Source: Patescibacteria group bacterium
GTDB taxonomy: Bacteria > Patescibacteriota > UBA1384 > DATEAH01
DNA length: 64,000 bases
Reading direction: 5' to 3'
Assembly: GCA_035288465.1 (NCBI GenBank)
Contig: DATEAH010000005.1
Coordinates: forward strand, 3,636-67,635
Shown here: piece after piece, positions 3,057 through 64,000 of the stretch
How the letters are laid out: every line of letters starts with the position of its first letter
How positions within the stretch are numbered: position 1 is the stretch's first letter
Notes under the pieces: model-generated
The model's database searches: none
Told to the model about the DNA's origin: nothing
What the model saw: the letters and a program-made list of their open reading frames with translations, nothing else
Position numbers and translations under genes: made by a program

Positions 3057-3692
3057 TTATTTATTATTTTCTTCGATTTTTTTATAAACCCAAACTTTAA
3101 TACCAATGGTGCCATATTTAGTAAAAGCATCAACTTTGGCAAAATCTAAGGGGATTTTGAGGGTTTGCGTCGGAATCGAGCCTGAACCAAATTTTTCTCG
3201 ACGCGCAATTTCAGCACCATTTAAACGTCCCCCAATTTCAATTTTAATCCCGATGGCGCCAGCATCTTTAGCACGCTCAATTGCCATATTAACGGCGCGG
3301 CGATATGCGACCCGACGGGCAAGTTGAAAAGCAATATTTTCAGCAATAATTTGCGCTCTCGTGTCTGGATCGTGAACTTCAAAGATTTCAATTTTGACTT
3401 TTTTACCGATTTTTTTGTCTAAATAATTTTTTAAATCTTCAGTCCCCTTACCGCTGCGACCAATGAGGACACCCGGTTTCGGGGTATAAATTAAAATTTT
3501 AATATCCCCACCTCGTTCTCTAACAATTTCAATTAACTCAATCGTGCCAAGGCTAAATTTGGCTTTGATTTCTTTTCTAATATTTAAATCTTCCATCACG
3601 ATTTGAGGATAATTTTTTTTGCTATACCATTTTGAATGCCAATTTTTATTTAGAGGCAGTCTTAGACTTTCTGGATTGACTTTTTGTCCCAT
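3057..3692 (-). CDS. rpsC: 30S ribosomal protein S3
   Basis: MGQKVNPESLRLPLNKNWHSKWYS... with KH-domain region GVLIGRSGKG; 211 aa. Confidence 0.93.
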   Translation of the reverse strand: MGQKVNPESLRLPLNKNWHSKWYSKKNYPQIVMEDLNIRKEIKAKFSLGTIELIEIVRERGGDIKILIYTPKPGVLIGRSGKGTEDLKNYLDKKIGKKVKIEIFEVHDPDTRAQIIAENIAFQLARRVAYRRAVNMAIERAKDAGAIGIKIEIGGRLNGAEIARREKFGSGSIPTQTLKIPLDFAKVDAFTKYGTIGIKVWVYKKIEENNK

Positions 3693-41493: not shown

Positions 41494-42732
41494 TCAATGT
41501 CTGATTTCGTATCTGGGTTTGCCAAAAGCGATGCGGTCTGGGGCGGTTTTTAGAACCTGATGCATCGCGGCAGGATAAATAGTTTCGGCGCCAAATTTAT
41601 CATTTAATTTATCCAAAGCTTCGGCTGATTTTTTGATTTTTTCCATTTGCGGAAAAATAGCAATTTGGTGATTTTTTAAATCCGGTTTGAGCCAAAAAGC
41701 CGATACTGACACCCAAATTGGCTGACCATGCCACAAACAATCTGCCAAAAGGCTGAAGATATTTTTAGTAAAACTCAAATTATCAGAAAAGGTAGGCACG
41801 CGGCGGCTTTTGGCAAATGAGGTGCGGTTTGTAAATCTGACCGCCACGCTCACGCCAGAAGCGGAAAAACCCTTTTGTCTTAATCTCGAGCTTGACTTAA
41901 AAATTAATTTTTTAATCACAGCCTCCGCTGATGTACGATTTCTAAACTCAGGCGCTAAAACATGGGAATGGCCAATATTTTGGGTCTGGCTCGCATAATC
42001 GTCAACCTCAAAACCGCGCAAACGCAAATACCATAATTTCCCCCAATGTTTTAAAATTTTTTCTAATTGATGAGAGCTTTTTTGAAAAAATTGCTCAGGC
42101 GTCTTGATCTGAAAAAAATTTAATCTTTTGGCAAGTTGGCAATTTATACCAGTCAGATCAGTCAATTTAGAAAATTCAACATAAAAATTATTTAATTTGG
42201 CAAGTTCCACCACGGCTAAACCGTCGGGCTTGTTTTCTTCGGAGATCATTTTCGCCAAAAAACGGTTTGGCCCAATCCCCACCGAACAAGTCAAGAAATC
42301 GCCGACTTGGCTTTTGAGATTGGTTTTGATTTTTCGGCCAATTTCAGTAGCTTTTTGAAAATTTTGTTCAGAAGGCGAGAGCGGCAAAATAAATTCATCC
42401 ACACTTAAGGGCTGATAAAAAGGGGTAATATTTTCCAGGGCTTTTTTAATTTCTTGATGATAAATCATATACAAAGCTGGTCGAGCCTCGACAATTTTAA
42501 TTTTGGGGTAAATTCTTTTCGCCTCGCCAACACCCATGCCAGTTTTCACGCCGACAGTTTTAGCTTCTTTGGAGGCGGCAATCACGCAACCGGTGGCGCC
42601 GGTGTAAGGCGCAATACCAATTGCCTGGCCTCGAAGAGGCGGCTGCACTTGCTGCTCAATAGAAGCGAAAAAAGAATCCATATCCAAAAACAAAACTTGA
42701 AAATCGCAAGGTTTTTGATTCAATGAGAACAT
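41494..42732 (-). CDS. dinB: Y-family DNA polymerase (DinB / Pol IV-like)
   Basis: N-terminal LDMDSFFASIEQ (matches DinB DMDxFFA[SA]VE), catalytic GIGPNRFLAKM-type region; 412 aa. Confidence 0.85.
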   Translation of the reverse strand: MFSLNQKPCDFQVLFLDMDSFFASIEQQVQPPLRGQAIGIAPYTGATGCVIAASKEAKTVGVKTGMGVGEAKRIYPKIKIVEARPALYMIYHQEIKKALENITPFYQPLSVDEFILPLSPSEQNFQKATEIGRKIKTNLKSQVGDFLTCSVGIGPNRFLAKMISEENKPDGLAVVELAKLNNFYVEFSKLTDLTGINCQLAKRLNFFQIKTPEQFFQKSSHQLEKILKHWGKLWYLRLRGFEVDDYASQTQNIGHSHVLAPEFRNRTSAEAVIKKLIFKSSSRLRQKGFSASGVSVAVRFTNRTSFAKSRRVPTFSDNLSFTKNIFSLLADCLWHGQPIWVSVSAFWLKPDLKNHQIAIFPQMEKIKKSAEALDKLNDKFGAETIYPAAMHQVLKTAPDRIAFGKPRYEIRH

Positions 42733-42780
42733 TTAAAAAATCCTTTGCCCCTTTATTTTCACAAATTTCTAGCCAAGCCA

Positions 42781-42808
42781 TCATATTCTAATTATACAAA
42801 AGGTTATA
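42781..42808 (-). promoter_or_regulatory. Candidate dinB promoter (minus strand: TTGACC-N16-TATAAT)
   Basis: rc of 42803-42808 = TTGACC; rc of 42781-42786 = TATAAT. Confidence 0.45.
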
Positions 42809-43003
42809 CAAAGGTCAATAATCAAACTTGTGGATAACTAAATAAATTGTGGGGTTCGTTTTTAAACTTCAACCAACTGACGATTGTGTTTAGTGAGTAC
42901 TAAATATTTTACCAGTTGATTTTGGGGGATACAGCTTAAATTATAAGTAATACCGCCGCACATTTTGCGCCTTAGTTTATTTTCTTTTAAATTACCTTAG
43001 TTT

Positions 43004-54993: not shown

Positions 54994-55226
54994 CTCGTTT
55001 CGGGATCTATGATTAATAAAATTATACCATTAATCTCCTGAAATAGTCAAGATTTTTTATTTTTTTGTGAGGGTAATGAATATTATTTATTAAATTTGTG
55101 GATAATTGCTACTTGACAAATATATAGTGATTTGCTCTACTCGAGTAGAGATCGGGTGGGTTGCCGATTGTTTGGCGCTTCACCTTTGGTGGAGGCAAGG
55201 CCAGCTTTAAGCAATCCCCGATTTAT

Positions 55227-56020: not shown

Positions 56021-56880
56021 GAGGTGGGGGACGAGGTGGGGGACGGTTCTCTTTGAGCGAGGTGGGGGACGGTTCTCTTTTAAATAGACTTTTTGGCTTT
56101 TCTTACTAGCTTCCTCCATCTTTCTTTAGTTTTCGGTTTATCTTTTGCCTTTCCAAATATCTCTGATTATCACTTCCCCAGATATCTTTATTATACGATT
56201 CTTTAATTATTTGATCTACCATCAGCCGTTGATAGTTTGTTTGGCGCTCTTTTGAATTATCTCCTAATGCCCTGCAAAAGAAATCATCAGTTAAAAGTTT
56301 GTCTTTTTGACCTTGAGCATAATGGTTGTAGCTTGAAAAACGATATTTTTCAGGGCTCTTTACAAGTCTAGCCCTTACTGGATTTAATTCAATATATTTC
56401 CCGCATTGGATGAAGTACTCATCTTTTCCTATCGGTTGGCTCTTGAATCTACCTTGCCAAAAGTGTCCTGTCCAGCCATATCTTTTTTTAAAATAATGAA
56501 AGTATGCAAGGTTGAGTTTTTTCATAAAGATAGAGAAATCAGGAGCTTTTTTGGTTTGAATCAAGAAATGGACATGGTTTGGCATTAAACAATAATGATA
56601 AATATCAAACAAATGTTCTTTTTTGTACTTATTGATTAAATCTAAAAAATGGAGATAATCTTCCTTTGTTTTAAAAACAACATTTCGATTATTACCTCTT
56701 GTTATGATGTGGTAATAAGATTGAGATAAAATAAAACGAGGTGGTCTTGGCATAATTTAATGATAACATATATCAGCCAAAACGCCTAATTTCCTGTTCA
56801 TTTGAGAACCGTCCCCCAATCCAATCCGTTTTTTATGGACTACCAAGCTATCTGACCCCGCTCACGCGGGGTTTTCTTTT
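56021..56880. mobile_element. RAYT / IS200-like tyrosine-transposase element with REP-like terminal repeats
   Basis: HUH/Y1 transposase gene flanked by GAGGTGGGGGACGGTTCTCTTT (x2 plus a partial copy, 56021-56080) and an inverted copy GAGAACCGTCCCCCAA (56804-56819), plus a GC hairpin ccccgc..gcgggg (56856-56871). Confidence 0.6.
56106..56753 (-). CDS. REP-associated tyrosine transposase (RAYT) / IS200-like HUH transposase
   Basis: MPRPPRFILSQSYYHIITRGNNRNVVF (typical RAYT N-terminus); HUH motif MPNHVHFLI; candidate catalytic Tyr in RFSSYNHY. Confidence 0.8.
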   Translation of the reverse strand: MPRPPRFILSQSYYHIITRGNNRNVVFKTKEDYLHFLDLINKYKKEHLFDIYHYCLMPNHVHFLIQTKKAPDFSIFMKKLNLAYFHYFKKRYGWTGHFWQGRFKSQPIGKDEYFIQCGKYIELNPVRARLVKSPEKYRFSSYNHYAQGQKDKLLTDDFFCRALGDNSKERQTNYQRLMVDQIIKESYNKDIWGSDNQRYLERQKINRKLKKDGGS

Positions 56881-57986: not shown

Positions 57987-58267
57987 TTTTATTCTCCTTG
58001 TTCAATTAAATCTTCGACTTTGGATTTGGCTTGTTCGAGTAATTCTTTGGATTTTTGACGCGCTATAATTCTTCGATTCTAATGAACTTTAAATTTTCCT
58101 TTTCCACCGGCATCGTGTCGCCATTTTCAAGACAAATATCAAATAAATAGGTTTTAGGATTCGCCCAATTTTCCATTTCTACTAACCCGTCCCCGTACTT
58201 ACTTTTGACTTTTACACCCATCATCTCAACCCTCCTCTTTAATTAAACTTTCAACTTTTATTTTTAT

Positions 58268-58740
58268 TTATATTCCTTTTATTGTATTTTTATTGCAAAG
58301 ATTCATTAAATCACTCCTAATATATTCATCGCGCCAGTCAGTTAGTTTTATTGGCTTGAATGGCAATTCCTTTTTAAGAATTTTCATTGCATAAACTATT
58401 AAACTTTTATTACCATTTCTAATAAATATTCCTTTATTCGTATCTTCTCTTACACAAGCTTCGATTCCATTACAAATATTATTCTGTTTATTTTTAAATT
58501 CTTTAATAGTAAATTTTTTATATAATTTTTTAATTTTACAAACAATACAATTATCGGTTCCCCAATTAAAATTATTATTAAAAAATTTTGCCGTATCTTG
58601 AATATTTTGAACCCTATAATCTTTACCTGTTTTTTCTTTAATAGTTTTTTAATATTATTCCAATTACAATCGTCGTCCGAATTTAATTCATAATAAACTA
58701 TTGCATTATAGAAATCACTTAATTTCTTAATTTTATTCAA
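58268..58740 (-). pseudogene. Hypothetical gene disrupted by a -1/+1 frameshift in an A-run (or sequencing indel)
   Basis: Frame 1 is protein-like only to ...IKKLLK, then low-complexity. An alternative frame from the A-run (~58625-58641) gives a protein-like 120-aa continuation ...TGKDYRVQNIQDTAKFFNNNFNWGTDNCIVCKIKKLYKKF... Confidence 0.35.
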
Positions 58741-58810
58741 TTATTTTTTAACTCCCAAATATTTTGCCGTGAGTAAAATCTAATGAGAACTATCCACATC
58801 AAATAGTTAA

Positions 58811-59263
58811 TTATTCTGACACAATTTTATATACTTTCTCGCATGCCGAAATTAATTTTGATGAATATTCTTGATTTAAAAATGTTGCTTCATGTACAAA
58901 TAAATTTCTATACTTTACTGACATTTTAAAAAAATCCCAATCTATCCCCAATTCATTTTTAATATTCACATGTTTAATCCCGAAAACCAGATTGACTAAT
59001 CGGATTACTTTTGTATTACGATATTTTTCATATTTTTCTTCTACAGTTAATGAATTATCATCAGAATGGATAATAATACTTCGAGAAACTGCCTCAATCA
59101 AAGAACATAATAATGCCACATCTTTTATCCCAACATCAAAATATTGATAAAGTTGATTAGCTATATTAATTCGTGATTTTGATGGTACAGAATAATATTT
59201 TCTTCGTAATTCAATAACATGACGTTGCATTTCCATCAAAAGCTGTTGGTCATCATTACTCAT
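58811..59263 (-). CDS. Hypothetical protein with HEPN-like Rx4H motif (RNLFVHE)
   Basis: 150 aa, helical; R-x4-H near the C-terminal third. Weak assignment. Confidence 0.4.
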   Translation of the reverse strand: MSNDDQQLLMEMQRHVIELRRKYYSVPSKSRINIANQLYQYFDVGIKDVALLCSLIEAVSRSIIIHSDDNSLTVEEKYEKYRNTKVIRLVNLVFGIKHVNIKNELGIDWDFFKMSVKYRNLFVHEATFLNQEYSSKLISACEKVYKIVSE

Positions 59264-59290
59264 TTTTGATTTCCTTATTAAATTTTCTCA

Positions 59291-59761
59291 CTAATTTTTG
59301 TTTAATTTTTCCATTACATCAACAGCATGGCCAATTGTAATTTTTTTATCCCGGATATTTATATCAACGATATATTCTCCAATGGGATCTCCTGCAGTAC
59401 TCTTCATTAAACAAACAAGATAGGCAAAACTATTCTTATCCAATTTTGATATAAGCCAACAAGATTCAAAATAATTGCAATCTATTTTTTTAGATAGCGA
59501 AGGAATTAATATTTGACCATTTTTATCAGAAAAAATTATTAACCCATATCCCTCGGCATAATGTTTTCCCTTTTTGGTTTTTTTATTTATTGCATCAATT
59601 ATTGCCATTTCAAGATCACCTTGAATAAATCTAGGTATAAAAACTTGTTCAAATGCAATACCAACCGGGATATTATTTTTATCGAATCCAATAATATTTC
59701 CATCTCGACCGTCGGGATCTGATGAAGGTACAACTAACACCGGAGATATAATGACCCACAC
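59291..59761 (-). CDS. Hypothetical protein; N-terminus may be supplied by the overlapping ORF 59679..59939 (frameshift near 59755-59775)
   Basis: Both ORFs look protein-like only in their non-overlapping parts. Confidence 0.35.
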   Translation of the reverse strand: MWVIISPVLVVPSSDPDGRDGNIIGFDKNNIPVGIAFEQVFIPRFIQGDLEMAIIDAINKKTKKGKHYAEGYGLIIFSDKNGQILIPSLSKKIDCNYFESCWLISKLDKNSFAYLVCLMKSTAGDPIGEYIVDINIRDKKITIGHAVDVMEKLNKN

Positions 59762-59961
59762 AGCACACTATAATAAGTCCAAAAAGTTCACGAAATAATA
59801 AATCCATTTTCTCTATTTTTTTTGAAGAATAGAGTATATCCGGATTTTTTAATAATTCCGGAATAATTATCTTTTCCAGTATTACTTCTACTGACTTCGC
59901 TGCTATTATTTTTTTATTTATGCCAAATTTTTTTATCATAACTATTCCTTAAATTTTTTAA

Positions 59962-60198
59962 TTAAATTTTGCCGATTTTTCTCCTTGCCTTGTGAATCCT
60001 CATGTGTTTTATCTTTGTCACAACACGTGTTCCCTTAGAAGTAGTTTTTCCTCCCTCAACGATAGGTTTGACGTGGTGCAAAACTTTACCTTTGGGTAAT
60101 TTGCCTTTATTATAACCTTTTTGTTTAAGAACTTTTTTAATTTTTAATGGATTTCTTTCTTTTTTAATTTGTTTTTTAGATAGTTTTCTTTTCTTCAT
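59962..60198 (-). CDS. Small basic HNH-endonuclease-like protein
   Basis: LHHVKPIVEGGKTT...HMRIHKARR fits the HNH pattern (HH..P...GG...H..H). Start taken at the ATG preceded by an AAGGAG RBS; the ORF track begins 10 codons upstream at GTG. Confidence 0.5.
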   Translation of the reverse strand: MKKRKLSKKQIKKERNPLKIKKVLKQKGYNKGKLPKGKVLHHVKPIVEGGKTTSKGTRVVTKIKHMRIHKARRKIGKI

Positions 60199-60292
60199 TC
60201 CATACTCCTTTTTATATAAGTTATCCACAGATTGACTTTCGATTTATTTTCGATTATATTTTAATTATAATGCGTAAAAAAGGGGGTGTCAA

Positions 60293-61855
60293 ATGATCAC
60301 TAAACGCCAAAAACAAGTTCTCGAATTTATTAAAAAATTCATTAGAACGCATGACTACGCTCCCTCTTTAGAAGAAATTAAAAAGCACCTCAATCTTTCT
60401 TCTGTTTCTACTGCCCATCATCATATTTCAAAACTATACAATAAAGGATTTATTAATAGATTAAAAAATAATCCACGAGCGATCGAACTTGTTGAGACTA
60501 AAAAACTAAATTTAATTAAAATCCCTATTGTGGGAACAATAGCTGCGGGTCAACCGATTGAAGCGATAGAAGTTCCTGGTCAGTCAGTGACTCTATCACG
60601 AGATGAAATTGGAAAATTCGGAAATTTTTATGCTCTGAAAGTTGACGGCAATAGTATGATCGACGAAGGTATATTTGATGGTGACTTTGTAATAATTCGC
60701 AGACAAGAAACTGCTGATAATGGACAGACGGTCGTGGCGATTATTGATGATAACGAAGCTACCCTTAAAAAAATTTATAAAGAAAATAAAAGAATTAAAT
60801 TACAGCCAGCGAATCAGGTTATGCTACCTATCTTTCGAAAAGAGGTAAAAATTCGTGGTGTAGTGGTTAAAATCATCAGAAACTTAGAAAATAGCGTTCA
60901 GGATAATACACTGGCTTATAAAAAGAAAATATTATTAAATCGCATTAGAAGTTCTAATCCTAATAGTAGCAATAAATATAAAAGAGTTGCTCTTTCAACA
61001 ATAAGATATGCTGGTGGGAAAAGCTTGGCAGTTGGACATGTGATTGAATTGTTGCCAGACAATATCGAAAAGGTTATTTCTCCGTTTTTTGGTGGTGGTT
61101 CAATTGAAATAGCTATGAGCAAAGAGCTAGATTTGGAAGTAGTAGGTTATGATATATTTGATATCCTTTGCAATTATTGGAAATTTCAGATAGAAAAACC
61201 GAAACTTCTTTATGAAAAATTAAAAGTACTAGAACCAAATAAAAAAACTTTTGAGAAAATTAGATTAATCTTGAATAAAGTATGGAAAAAAAGAATAAAG
61301 TTAGACCCTATAACATTAGCGGTTTATTATGTTTATAACTTTAACTTATCATATGGCCCAGGATTTATGGGTTGGGCTTCTGATATTTATTTAAATGAGA
61401 AAAAATATAATAGAGTAATTAAAAAAATTAGAGACTTTGATCCTAAAAATTTACGGGTTAAATGTGAAGATTTCCAAAAAGTAATCAAGAATCACCCAAA
61501 TGATTTTCTTTATTGTGATCCTCCATATTATATTGGAAAGGATTCAAAAATGTTTAAAGGAATATATCCGATGAGGAATATTCCTGTCCATCATAATGGA
61601 TTCCCACATGAGGCATTAAGAGATTTGCTGAAGAAACACAAGGGTGGCTTTATTTTATCCTATAACAATTGTTCGACAATAAGGGAATACTACAAAGAGT
61701 TCCAACAAGTATTTCCAAGTTGGCAGTACACAATGGGACAAGGAGAAACAAGAATAGGCCAAAATCGCATTAATAATGGGAGTAAAAATCATATAAAGTC
61801 ATCTCATGAAATAATTATTTACAATTTGCCAAAGAATAAATTTTATAATTCTTGA
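60293..61855 (+). CDS. Fusion: complete LexA repressor (wHTH + S24 autopeptidase) + Dam-family N6-adenine DNA methyltransferase
   Basis: LexA hallmarks: ITKRQKQVLEFI, cleavage-site IVGTIAAGQP (Ala-Gly), nucleophile VDGNSM, GDFVIIRR...GQTVVAIIDDNEATLKKIYK (catalytic Lys), VVVKIIRN. ~35-aa linker. Dam hallmarks: RYAGGKS (AdoMet motif I), CDPPYY (motif IV). One 520-aa ORF, no in-frame stop. Confidence 0.8.
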   Translation: MITKRQKQVLEFIKKFIRTHDYAPSLEEIKKHLNLSSVSTAHHHISKLYNKGFINRLKNNPRAIELVETKKLNLIKIPIVGTIAAGQPIEAIEVPGQSVTLSRDEIGKFGNFYALKVDGNSMIDEGIFDGDFVIIRRQETADNGQTVVAIIDDNEATLKKIYKENKRIKLQPANQVMLPIFRKEVKIRGVVVKIIRNLENSVQDNTLAYKKKILLNRIRSSNPNSSNKYKRVALSTIRYAGGKSLAVGHVIELLPDNIEKVISPFFGGGSIEIAMSKELDLEVVGYDIFDILCNYWKFQIEKPKLLYEKLKVLEPNKKTFEKIRLILNKVWKKRIKLDPITLAVYYVYNFNLSYGPGFMGWASDIYLNEKKYNRVIKKIRDFDPKNLRVKCEDFQKVIKNHPNDFLYCDPPYYIGKDSKMFKGIYPMRNIPVHHNGFPHEALRDLLKKHKGGFILSYNNCSTIREYYKEFQQVFPSWQYTMGQGETRIGQNRINNGSKNHIKSSHEIIIYNLPKNKFYNS

Positions 61856-62613
61856 AATTTAGAAATCGCTCTACCGTGGACTAAAACATTATTATATTTA
61901 ATTTTTATTTTATTAATTTTATTTTTTAATAAATTTAGTGTTTTTTCTCGACTCATCCAAAATTTGATTTCTCTATAATGCACATCACTATCATTTCTAA
62001 GTTCAATTTCGCCAATAGTTACACCCTTATTAATCAATATAAAAATAACTTTTTGAGCATCCATCTGCCCAATTCTTTTTGCTTTTGAATTTGAAATCGT
62101 GGTAGAATTATCAAGGGCTTCGATAGCTTCATACCCATCAAAAACATGAAATTGATGATTTTCTTTAATGGTTAAATAATCAACTTCTCCATTATTCAAA
62201 AATGCTTTTTTGAAAAAAATAATTTTGTTTTGCCCTTTATTTAAATATTTACTTAAATTTTTCATTGCAATAGTCAGTAATTCCTTAAACTTTATTTTAT
62301 TTAGTAAATATTTATCTCTAGATGAGGGGAAACAATTAAGACAATCACGAAGAAAATTTGATCCTTGGAAATCAATATCAGTCATTAACCTATTATAACC
62401 ATATAAGAATATTTGCCATTTTTTCTCTCCACTTTTCACGGAATGTATATCACCACGTTTGTCTATTACATCTTTTTTCTTGCCACTACCATGCGTTTTA
62501 CCCCCGATTATACACGCAAATTCTTTTTCGGCATCATGACCACGCTGTCTTACCATCCTAGCATTTTCAGAAGTCATTGCACGACGTTTTATTATTGTAT
62601 TCTTTTGATCCAT
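61843..62613 (-). CDS. Hypothetical protein (256 aa); candidate restriction endonuclease partner of the methyltransferase
   Basis: Convergent with, and overlapping by 13 nt, the 3' end of the LexA-MTase gene. No confident motif (possible D...EIELR). Confidence 0.5.
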   Translation of the reverse strand: MDQKNTIIKRRAMTSENARMVRQRGHDAEKEFACIIGGKTHGSGKKKDVIDKRGDIHSVKSGEKKWQIFLYGYNRLMTDIDFQGSNFLRDCLNCFPSSRDKYLLNKIKFKELLTIAMKNLSKYLNKGQNKIIFFKKAFLNNGEVDYLTIKENHQFHVFDGYEAIEALDNSTTISNSKAKRIGQMDAQKVIFILINKGVTIGEIELRNDSDVHYREIKFWMSREKTLNLLKNKINKIKIKYNNVLVHGRAISKFQEL

Positions 62614-62628
62614 TTTATATTCCTTTTC

Positions 62629-62650
62629 TGCTTCAAGTTTACTCTTTAAA
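62629..62650. promoter_or_regulatory. 18-nt element TGCTTCAAGTTTACTCTT (+AAA), copy 1 (copy 2 at 63898-63918)
   Basis: Identical sequence 15-37 nt upstream of the 256-aa gene start and ~40-60 nt upstream of the 87-aa/308-aa operon start. Confidence 0.5.
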
Positions 62651-62667
62651 ATGATTTTTGTACTTTT

Positions 62668-63594
62668 TTATCCTTTTATTAGCTTAAAACTGATTTTATA
62701 TGTGTAAAAGTCAATATTTTGGGTTACAGACAAGGCACGATGCAGACGAATATCATCTTCATGAGCAATAATTAATCCGCAAACTTTTTGACCTTTTTCG
62801 GCAAGTTCTTCTTTAATATAACCCATATAACTCTGCACTTGACCGATAACAACATCACTCGCTCTTCCTCTTTTAAGTTCTATGACTAATAATTCCTTTT
62901 TGTCCTTGCTGATTGCGAGAATATCAAGCGGCCCGGTGTCTGTTTGATATTGCTTACCAATAATTTCACCCTTTTCTTTAAAAATATTATATTTTTTCCC
63001 TAGAATTGTATGTTCCCAGTTTTGGACCAAAAAATCTTCTAAATACTGCTCGAGCGCAAAAACCGAAGGATCCTCAATGGTTTCATCGGTCGCAATAATA
63101 TCTGCGGGTTTTTTGCCAGAAATGAGTTTTTCAATCTCCTCTGCATATCCTGAGATATTGATAGCCGTTCCGGCTGCGCCTGTTGAATTTTGAAGAGCTT
63201 CACTCATTTGATTTCTTTCAATAACCCCCGGAAACCAACGTACTCCTCGACGATGGGGTAATTTTTCACCTTTTTGATATTCGTAGTTAGTTGTGATTTC
63301 GCCAACCATATATTCGGCTCTACCATTAGGACAAAGAACGATATCATCAACATTTATTCCTTTTGCAATAGTCCAAAGCATGCCACAAGCAAGACCAGCC
63401 GCGACTCTTGATCTCCCTGGATTTTCTTTGAGATATTTAGGAATCATCACTTTATTAAATTCGCGCCAATTTTCGGGTAGTTTATTTGATAAATCTGTTT
63501 TTTTAATCCACCCAACACCAATAAAATTACCAACATGGGCTTCTTCTGCATAAATACTATTTTGCCCTAGCATAATTCTATAATATGCTCTCAT
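62668..63594 (-). CDS. Nuclease: N-terminal PUA/EVE-like domain (tentative) + C-terminal NucS/DUF91 (Shedu-like) PD-(D/E)xK domain
   Basis: C-terminus GPLDILAISKDKKELLVIELKRGRASDVVIGQVQSYMGYIK matches the NucS-type D...ExK...Q..Y motif. N-terminus has FIGVGW...VDDIVLCP..AEYMVGEI...HRRGVRW (PUA-like pattern). Confidence 0.6.
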   Translation of the reverse strand: MRAYYRIMLGQNSIYAEEAHVGNFIGVGWIKKTDLSNKLPENWREFNKVMIPKYLKENPGRSRVAAGLACGMLWTIAKGINVDDIVLCPNGRAEYMVGEITTNYEYQKGEKLPHRRGVRWFPGVIERNQMSEALQNSTGAAGTAINISGYAEEIEKLISGKKPADIIATDETIEDPSVFALEQYLEDFLVQNWEHTILGKKYNIFKEKGEIIGKQYQTDTGPLDILAISKDKKELLVIELKRGRASDVVIGQVQSYMGYIKEELAEKGQKVCGLIIAHEDDIRLHRALSVTQNIDFYTYKISFKLIKG

Positions 63595-63596
63595 CG

Positions 63597-63860
63597 CTAT
63601 TCCTTTATTTTTGTTCTATTGATAATATTTTCGATTACCCAATATTTATAACCATAAATTTTTAGATATTTGTATTTTTTGCCATAAAATGATTTTTTAT
63701 AACCATTTTTATCGATCTCGGCAATAAAAGTATTAATTTCTTCCGATTTTTCCGGATATAAGTCTGTAACAATATATTCGTGGGGAATTTCGGGCATCGT
63801 TTTAGCAAATTGCCAATCAACTGACTTGATTAATTTTTCAATCTGCATTAAATTATTCAT
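63597..63860 (-). CDS. Small hypothetical protein (87 aa), first gene of an operon with the nuclease
   Basis: MNNLMQIEKLIKSVDWQFAKTMPEIPHEYIV...KYKYLKIYGYKYWV; its stop abuts the nuclease start. Confidence 0.45.
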   Translation of the reverse strand: MNNLMQIEKLIKSVDWQFAKTMPEIPHEYIVTDLYPEKSEEINTFIAEIDKNGYKKSFYGKKYKYLKIYGYKYWVIENIINRTKIKE

Positions 63861-64000
63861 TCAGTTTTGTTTTTTAATCTCCAAAAGAAAATCTATTTGC
63901 TTCAAGTTTACTCTTAAATTGGGTGGAAAGCAAGAAGTTGTGGGCACAATAGGAAATTAACCTAATTAGTCTAATTATTCTAAAATTGTTATGTTAAGGC

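Follow-up and report, generated by a model that had tools for sequence, protein, structure and literature searches.

Why should a repressor of the SOS response be joined, within a single open reading frame (ORF), to an enzyme that methylates DNA? The question is raised by a stretch of 64,000 nucleotides from a Patescibacteria group bacterium (GenBank assembly GCA_035288465.1, contig DATEAH010000005.1, forward-strand positions 3,636 to 67,635), here called the window and numbered from its first letter, in which one ORF encodes a LexA repressor followed by a DNA methyltransferase (MTase). The best explanation we can offer, to which we assign a probability of about 0.6, is that the protein is an SOS-cleavable autorepressor of the methyltransferase (M) gene of a Type II restriction-modification (R-M) system, such that DNA damage would raise methylation and relieve restriction. 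This reading draws on the domains of the fusion, on its promoter, and on the distribution of its relatives.

A LexA repressor and a methyltransferase in one frame

The fusion gene and its parts are as follows (aa, amino acids).

60293..61855, + strand: LexA-methyltransferase fusion gene, 520 aa, M gene of a Type II R-M system (stop-free ORF, three Pfam domains, at least 120 full-length homologous clusters)
60296..60481, + strand: LexA winged helix-turn-helix (wHTH) DNA-binding domain, aa 2-63, with recognition helix SVSTAHHHISKL (PF01726 LexA_DNA_bind, 67 bits)
60524..60868, + strand: S24 peptidase and dimerisation domain, aa 78-192 (PF00717 Peptidase_S24, 93 bits)
60545..60550, + strand: predicted autocleavage site Ala85-Gly86, between IVGTIAA and GQP (invariant in 21 D12 fusions and 47 fusion representatives)
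60653-60655 and 60767-60769, + strand: Ser121 and Lys159 of the S24 domain (both invariant in the same 21 and 47 sequences)
60905..61852, + strand: complete D12-class (alpha) N6-adenine DNA methyltransferase, aa ~205-520 (PF02086, PDLC03281, start of unfused homologues)
61085-61102 and 61517-61528, + strand: methyltransferase motif I, FFGGGS (265-270), and motif IV, DPPY (409-412)

Judged by its domains, the fusion is a bona fide LexA combined in one frame with a D12-class adenine methyltransferase. The Pfam scores of all three domains far exceed their curated cut-offs, and the NCBIfam lexA equivalog TIGR00498 matches aa 2-198 at 189.6 bits (cut-off, 110.95). MethyltransfD12 (PF02086) matches aa 239-481 at 114.5 bits (cut-off, 22) over profile positions 1-253 of 253, with motifs I (FxGxG) and IV (DPPY) in the alpha order that places the protein in this class. 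An initial annotation, made from the sequence alone, had described a complete LexA, its cleavage site and Ser/Lys dyad intact, that continues without a stop into the methyltransferase. PF01726, PF00717 and TIGR00498 bear this out, all the motifs it named are present, the 520-aa translation is uninterrupted, and the hidden Markov model searches it had proposed for the two halves place the LexA/S24 and D12 domains above their cut-offs. LexA is normally a stand-alone two-domain protein of ~200 aa, and it is here that the 520-aa fusion, with its C-terminal methyltransferase, departs from the type.

Two details of that annotation need correction. Its description of the enzyme as Dam-type is right at the level of the D12 class but fails at the level of the Dam subfamily, as TIGR00571 scores 60 bits, below its cut-off of 114.85, and PRK10904 scores 17.5 against a cut-off of 441. 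The REBASE-derived PADLOC profile MTase_II (PDLC03281) matches aa 207-510 at 367 bits over nearly the whole of its 309 positions, and the closest solved structures are 7m6b and DpnM (2dpm). These matches do not demonstrate a Dam orthologue or a GATC-specific enzyme. The observed/expected ratio of GATC, among Markov-corrected palindromic 4-mers, is 0.52-0.73 in the window and the related loci, with GGCC, CTAG, ACGT and TCGA similar and no clear outlier. The second detail is the supposed linker of ~35 aa (aa 198-235), most of which is the native N terminus of the methyltransferase. Unfused homologues begin at query residue ~190-210, and the segment KKxxFLxxIxSxNPxSxNKYKRV is common to fused and unfused enzymes, leaving a true linker of ~5 residues.

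The joining of the two halves recurs widely. A homologue search covered 5.8 billion proteins clustered at 90% identity, of which the top 120 clusters were inspected. All 120 are full length, at 501-538 aa (511-522 in nearly all), and share 71-79% identity with the fusion, and 119 have the three Pfam domains on record, the LexA_DNA_bind match being missing in one. They derive from NCBI, JGI, ENA and Logan assemblies. Where these best clusters are named they are Patescibacteria, under such labels as "transcriptional repressor LexA," "Type II adenine specific DNA methyltransferase," and "DNA adenine methylase." A genome scan, limited to one genome per GTDB species, gave 273 relatives, among which 25 independent loci (L001-L023, L072, L073) have a tblastn match that spans the LexA half into the methyltransferase half. 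The titles of these 25 records name Patescibacteria lineages, the exceptions being a few metagenome-assembled genomes (MAGs) with generic or doubtful labels. Within this genome set the D12 fusion is confined to MAGs labelled as, or likely to be, Patescibacteria.

These results supply both the exclusion of a missed stop or frameshift and the database search for the same architecture that the initial annotation had called for. An assembly or sequencing artefact has a negligible chance of accounting for an unbroken frame, at least 120 full-length clusters from four sources, 25 fused loci, and a conserved junction. A phage origin was also rejected, as no D12 fusion was found on the IMG/VR contigs, which hold unfused methyltransferases or stand-alone LexAs only. 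Across 21 aligned fused homologues, A85-G86, S121, K159, FGGG (266-269) and DPPY (409-412) show no variation; the wHTH varies most and the methyltransferase is conserved most.

The LexA part proved to be a module in its own right when it alone served as the query of an exhaustive HMMER search over 1.84 billion representatives of 50%-identity clusters. Of the 55 best matches, about 45 are proteins of 300-890 aa with LexA at residues 1-198, and ordinary ~200-aa LexAs predominate only below ~47% identity. Every one of the 47 long representatives scanned has LexA_DNA_bind, S24, and a C-terminal DNA methyltransferase domain. The latter matches N6_N4_Mtase (beta) in 29, Eco57I in 7, N6_Mtase in 5, D12 in 5, and the C5 family DNA_methylase in 3, with some overlap; the Eco57I and N6_Mtase matches mark gamma-class members. 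In none of the 47 do the Ala-Gly, Ser, or Lys residues vary, and the persistence of the cleavage residues across so many diverse fusion families argues that autocleavage is in use. Several of the 47 bear the NCBI name "transcriptional repressor LexA," in Patescibacteria, Nealsonbacteria, and one member of the Omnitrophota. The architecture is therefore a widespread modular design, found chiefly in Patescibacteria and already present in public databases, mostly under the name "LexA" or "DNA adenine methylase."

One genome, a member of the Portnoybacteria (L022), carries two fusions side by side.

L022, 2410-4263, + strand: second fusion, 617 aa, LexA and S24 with a gamma-class N6_Mtase/Eco57I domain, adjacent to the D12 fusion
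L022, 4253-5224, - strand: 323-aa partner convergent with the second fusion, without a database match

LexA is usually treated as a single-copy global regulator. These proteins show that ultra-small bacteria of the candidate phyla radiation (CPR) have repeatedly put it to use as a portable means of control, joined to methyltransferases of every class, and the names under which they are filed affect both regulon reconstructions and automated annotation.

The fusion promoter and the SOS boxes of its lineage

If the LexA half works as a repressor, its operator should be recognizable. The elements upstream of the fusion gene, and those of the window's dinB gene with which we compared them, are these.

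60232..60260, + strand: predicted fusion promoter, -35 TTGACT, 17-nt spacer, -10 TATATT (consensus scan, 10/12)
60237..60255, + strand: putative tandem direct-repeat operator TTTCGATT-TAT-TTTCGATT, 11-bp period (comparative evidence)
60221..60229, + strand: TTATCCACA box, a DnaA-box consensus sequence, flanking the fusion operator
60264..60292, - strand: perfect consensus antisense promoter, TTGACA-17-TATAAT, overlapping the ribosome-binding site and start codon (12/12 sigma-70 match)
41494..42732, - strand: Y-family (DinB-type) polymerase gene
42780-42840: dinB promoter with TTATCCACA, a -35, and a tandem over the -10
42792-42812: dinB tandem TTTGTATAA-CCT-TTTGTATAA, 12-bp period

The operator tandem fills the spacer of the fusion promoter, and its copy there is the single exact one in the window. 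Of 26 loci, 23 have the same tandem architecture, in either orientation, at the fusion promoter, compared with 0.9% of shuffles. It occurs once per fused locus, at the fusion promoter (L015, with two, is the exception). Where the half-site changes, it changes jointly in both copies and tracks the recognition helix: STAHFH and STAHHH go with TTTC(T/G)ATT, and ST(I/V)H(Q/E)H goes with TTTCGG(T/G). Because the half-sites co-vary with the recognition helix and the tandem is confined to the fusion promoter, the comparison of loci gives good support to the view that the fused wHTH is a ligand of its own promoter, and the fusion is likely to be a self-repressor. The second fusion of L022 has a promoter of the same design, TTATCTACA ... 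TTTCGCT-N4-TTTCGCT-TGGTATAAT. By sequence, then, the fusion has the own-promoter SOS box expected of a LexA as well as the own-promoter operator, unique per locus and co-varying with the recognition helix, expected of an SsoII-like methyltransferase.

The initial annotation had further supposed that SOS cleavage might couple expression of the neighbouring nucleases to DNA damage. Direct control of this kind finds no support in the promoters of the restriction (R) genes, which lack the operator in 21 of 22 fused loci; the exception is the intergenic region of L022, where the TTTCGCT-N4-TTTCGCT operator of the second fusion lies in DNA shared with the R gene of the first system. We accordingly rejected a LexA operator that also controls R. 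The antisense promoter points back across the operator toward a divergent ORF of 88 aa. In 11 of 26 fused loci an antisense -35 lies at 0 to -7 from the ATG, while any comparable promoter appears in 8% of shuffles; such a promoter could compete with that of M, or it could serve divergent genes.

The operator can be placed within the SOS system of the lineage. Thirty CPR dinB promoters were taken from metagenomes for this comparison, and 19 of them have the tandem (G/T)TTC(G/T)-N6-(G/T)TTC(G/T), typically TGTTCGGTnTnTGTTCGGTATAAT, against 0.9% of shuffles. A TTCGG-N6-TTCGG box is also present on the promoters of stand-alone ~200-aa LexAs from other contigs, which share 50-57% identity with the fused module. 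Such LexAs begin the 5-9 kb "viral" contigs of IMG/VR (L083-L091), and the box is seen in L086, L090, and L091, where upstream DNA is present. Since CPR dinB and stand-alone LexA promoters bear the same tandem type, the fusion module would appear to use the ordinary SOS-box type of its lineage. A published account likewise gives the Patescibacteria LexA motif as a direct repeat (PMC7739468, citing its ref. 52).

Within this genome the two boxes differ. The TTTGTATAA tandem of the window's dinB is common to its closest relatives, L103 and L107, is unlike the GTTCGG-type box of most CPR dinB genes, and is probably the host lineage's own SOS box. Because the fusion operator, TTTCGATT twice, is not the dinB box, TTTGTATAA twice, the comparison argues for a private operator in this genome and hence for a dedicated local regulator, with the host LexA presumed to lie outside the window.

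The TTATCCACA box adds a further element to these promoters. It has 31 exact matches in 435 kb of fused loci, where ~3 are expected, and ~23 of these are at the fusion promoter; further TGTGGATAA or TTATCCACA copies in the window lie at 42829-42837 and 55097-55105. One or the other form occurs in 24 of 26 fusion promoters and 9 of 30 CPR dinB promoters, against 5-6% of shuffles, the dinB loci with a box adjoining the tandem including L104, L110, L113, L114, and L124. Fusion promoters have 1 nt or 10-16 nt between box and tandem, and dinB promoters have 2-5 nt, spacings that we take to indicate a helical register. None of 52 unfused methyltransferase promoters has the TTATCCACA box, and its membership in the methyltransferase cassette was rejected on that ground. 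Because the box is constant while the LexA half-sites vary, a conserved factor other than LexA, possibly DnaA, may bind it. On fusion and dinB promoters alike it stands in register with the operator, a hint that these promoters combine the SOS signal with information on the state of replication.

The candidate restriction partner, the proposed mechanism and its rivals

Whether added methylation would protect the cell depends on what it protects against. The methyltransferase is flanked tail to tail by one of two unrelated proteins.

61843..62613, - strand: candidate Type IIP restriction endonuclease, 256 aa, convergent with the M gene, 13-bp 3' overlap (fold search)
L001, 3294-3860, - strand, and L009, 11533-12075, - strand: examples of the alternative partner of ~180 aa, another being in the L040 region

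The 256-aa protein has a HinP1I/MspI-type restriction-endonuclease fold according to a fold search, the sole method that gave it an identity; it has no match in Pfam, NCBIfam, PADLOC, or PDB sequences. Its family comprises 691 "hypothetical proteins" and adjoins this methyltransferase in 15 loci, convergent or co-directional. The invariant residues of the family (D48, D51, and S58-V59-K60) resemble the D...(Q/N)xK active-site variant of the HinP1I/MspI group of restriction enzymes. In 44 other loci (16 fused, 28 unfused) the same tail-to-tail position is held by the ~180-aa protein, which has a GIY-YIG-like segment, VYIIV..IKKIGGS, by eye and whose family has no Pfam or PDB sequence match; it may be a second, unrelated candidate restriction enzyme for the same methyltransferase. 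With one family or the other beside the methyltransferase, the M-R layout is found in virtually every locus with enough DNA, and what characterizes a Type II R-M system, a methyltransferase with an adjacent, co-inherited protein of restriction-endonuclease fold, is present. No terminator-like site was found between the convergent fusion and R genes. Nor did the loci contain a conserved small helix-turn-helix (HTH) gene of the kind that would encode a C protein, the window's upstream neighbours being conserved in no locus.

The cassette also exists without its repressor. At L024-L080 (e.g., L025, L031, L040, L045, L070, and L074) a stand-alone methyltransferase matches query residues ~190-515 at 58-77% identity, in hosts that include DPANN archaea (Nano-, Woese-, and Pacearchaeota and Altarchaeum), many SAR11 single-cell genomes, Dehalococcoidales, Chlorobiota, and others. 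Because the same M-R pair exists without LexA in DPANN archaea and SAR11, the LexA module was a later addition to an M-R cassette. The cassette is also unusually well conserved and widely transferred among small-genome lineages, and the 70-77% identity at which CPR bacteria, DPANN archaea, and SAR11 share it is a record of gene flow between the lineages with the smallest genomes.

Type II R-M systems behave much like toxin-antitoxin pairs, and their chief hazard is self-restriction when methylation lags, as in a new host, during repair synthesis, or under stress. In the mechanism we propose, the fusion would dimerize via its S24 domain, occupy its own promoter, and so keep the production of methyltransferase at a set level. 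In a naive cell, where that promoter is still free, M would be made in an early burst, during which R may be damped by convergent transcription that runs into its overlapping gene. DNA damage, including that from self-restriction at under-methylated sites and from unmethylated DNA left by repair synthesis, would give rise to RecA filaments. These would stimulate autocleavage at Ala85-Gly86, severing the DNA-binding domain, derepressing the promoter, and yielding more methyltransferase. The released S24-methyltransferase fragment would work without the operator, and the outcome would be a Type II counterpart of restriction alleviation. The literature provides two of the premises, namely, that imbalance in Type II R-M systems induces SOS and that HTH-methyltransferases autoregulate (reviewed in PMC3874152).

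Several observations weigh against this mechanism. Both fragments of cleaved LexA are degraded in E. coli, and the same fate here could reverse the predicted outcome. The conserved antisense promoter and the invariant TTATCCACA box indicate regulation more complex than the model. The fusion operators of L012 and L072 are identical to the canonical SOS box; cross-talk with the host LexA is likely in those genomes, and replacement of the host LexA there is possible. Neither recA nor a second lexA lies in the 64-kb window, the sole DNA of this genome that was examined. A full-length AlphaFold2 model built from a 21-sequence alignment (predicted local distance difference test score, 58; predicted template modeling score, 0.45) was uninformative and was used for no inference.

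The L012 and L072 operators bear directly on a rival account, in which the fusion is the genome's sole LexA, a master SOS repressor that has captured a methyltransferase, with methylation a passenger or an output of the SOS regulon. The N-terminal 198 aa do exceed the TIGR00498 cut-off, the 64-kb window has no other lexA, NCBI annotates such proteins as "transcriptional repressor LexA," and the operator shares the tandem type of CPR dinB boxes, to which it is identical in those two loci. Against this, the window's dinB bears a different tandem (TTTGTATAA twice, 12-bp period), as in L103 and L107, and the fusion operator occurs once per locus. One genome (L022) holds two adjacent fusions with different methyltransferases, ~45 distinct fusion families extend across all methyltransferase classes, and the lineage also has stand-alone ~200-aa LexAs whose boxes are of the fusion's type. 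The patchy distribution, the 70-79% identity across CPR classes, and the low-GC island point instead to a mobile R-M module, and we regard the master-repressor account as improbable. About equally improbable is a purely structural role, in which the LexA module serves as a dimeric DNA-binding autorepressor in place of a C protein or an SsoII-type HTH, with autocleavage vestigial and no link to SOS. Such a role would be sufficient to explain the operator in the fusion's own promoter and the co-variation of helix and half-site, given that S24 is the LexA dimerization domain and that autoregulation by HTH-methyltransferases is a known solution (PMC3874152). It leaves unexplained the invariance of Ala-Gly, Ser, and Lys in 21 D12 fusions and in 47 representatives with unrelated C-terminal halves, and vestigial autocleavage is disfavoured because such conservation is unexpected for catalytic residues that are not used.

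That invariance also counts in favour of a further rival, in which damage triggers suicide of the abortive-infection kind: cleavage would expose degrons, the S24-methyltransferase would be destroyed, methylation would lapse, and the stable R protein would kill the cell. The new C terminus, ...GTIAA, resembles the ClpX-recognized end of cleaved E. coli LexA, R would persist because its promoters are outside LexA control, and the gene lies in a defence island. Against this, cleavage would also derepress the promoter and so provide new protein, there is no sign of instability in the methyltransferase fragment, existing methylation lasts until replication, and the methyltransferase domain is intact and independent of the DNA-binding domain. 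We consider suicide unlikely, if somewhat less so than either of the two preceding accounts, and retain the SOS-cleavable autorepressor as the preferred explanation. The extension of that explanation to LexA-methyltransferase fusions in general is more tentative, standing a little below even odds in our estimation: it would make them a distinct and widespread R-M regulatory class in Patescibacteria, and occasionally elsewhere (Omnitrophota), in which a RecA-cleavable domain renders protective methylation responsive to damage. If true, Type II systems would have a built-in brake on autoimmunity or, should the enzyme be degraded after cleavage, possibly a trigger for suicide.

Known systems and the genomic setting

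The components and the logic of the proposed system are already known, from HTH-methyltransferases and from the S24 repressors of mobile elements, and the proteins themselves are in public databases. The nearest precedents are SsoII, Ecl18kI, EcoRII, and ScrFI, in which an N-terminal DNA-binding domain on an R-M methyltransferase likewise binds the enzyme's own promoter region and autoregulates M (PMC3874152). The SsoII-type domain is a simple HTH without protease or signal input, whereas the fusion has a full LexA with an S24 autoprotease and a predicted DNA-damage input; unlike the SsoII-type HTH, moreover, the LexA module is joined to alpha, beta, gamma, and C5 methyltransferases alike. Systems with C proteins also use a dedicated transcription factor to time M against R within a mobile system. 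The fusion differs in having no separate C gene or C-box, its regulator being within M, predicted to act on the M promoter only, and subject to a cleavage-based input.

Comparison with LexA itself gives a similar mixture. Canonical LexAs include the direct-repeat-binding forms of Patescibacteria and Alphaproteobacteria, and the fusion's operator is of the tandem (G/T)TTC-N7-(G/T)TTC type seen on CPR dinB and lexA genes, but the fusion bears a 320-aa enzyme, resides in a mobile defence island, has a private operator, and sometimes occurs more than once per genome. It also recalls lambda CI, SXT SetR, and the LexA-like repressors of phages, which are self-cleaving and RecA sensitive and serve one mobile module through their own operators, as the fusion would by its sequence. 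The S24 repressors of mobile elements are nevertheless separate genes that govern lysogeny or transfer, while the fusion is covalently joined to the enzyme it would regulate and has no linked integrase or phage genes. In Thermus phages, LexA-like repressor genes adjoin restriction genes (PMC11437467).

The outcome we propose also has a counterpart among Type I systems, in which restriction alleviation shifts the balance after damage from restriction to the protection of unmodified host DNA (PMC4231737). There the means is degradation by ClpXP of HsdR in the translocating enzyme, while here it would be derepression of the M gene via an autocleaving repressor domain. The literature searched describes no damage-responsive safety valve for Type II systems. 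If the proposal is correct, that role would fall to a methyltransferase equipped with an SOS-cleavable repressor of its own, and the question can be tested directly with one protein. That literature, which did not extend to the primary paper on the Patescibacteria SOS regulon, also contains no published description of a LexA-methyltransferase fusion, and a 2026 preprint devoted to CPR methyltransferases makes no mention of LexA, fusion, SOS, or repressor. This agrees with the initial annotation, which knew of no autocleaving SOS repressor joined to a methyltransferase.

The surroundings of the fusion gene suggest how it came to be in this genome. The neighbouring features are as follows.

56106..56753, - strand: IS200-type (Y1) transposase, near the low-GC boundary
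59962-60228, - strand: lysine-rich ORF of 88 aa, oriented divergently to the fusion gene, in which an HNH-like signature (HHVKPIVEGG...HMRIH) can be made out by eye
62668..63594, - strand: protein of the PADLOC candidate system PDC-S02, 308 aa, with a C-terminal NucS/YhcG-like PD-(D/E)XK domain (end-to-end match, 489 bits)

The 88-aa ORF has no family match and is conserved in no other locus. The PDC-S02 gene is directly upstream of the R gene, 54 bp apart from it. GC content drops from 0.36-0.41 to 0.28-0.33 across the last 6 kb of the window (58000-64000), a stretch that holds the R-M system and several unannotated small ORFs. The initial annotation's impression of a defence-like island with nucleases is borne out by this low GC, by the restriction fold of the 256-aa neighbour, and by the NucS-like nuclease of PDC-S02. 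The host DinB is closest to those of Candidatus Berkelbacteria and Patescibacteria (51-64% identity), while the fusion is 75-79% identical to proteins from other CPR classes. The low GC, the nearby transposase, PDC-S02, and this disparity between a Berkelbacteria-like DinB and a fusion that matches other CPR groups together suggest that the R-M system was horizontally acquired into a defence island.

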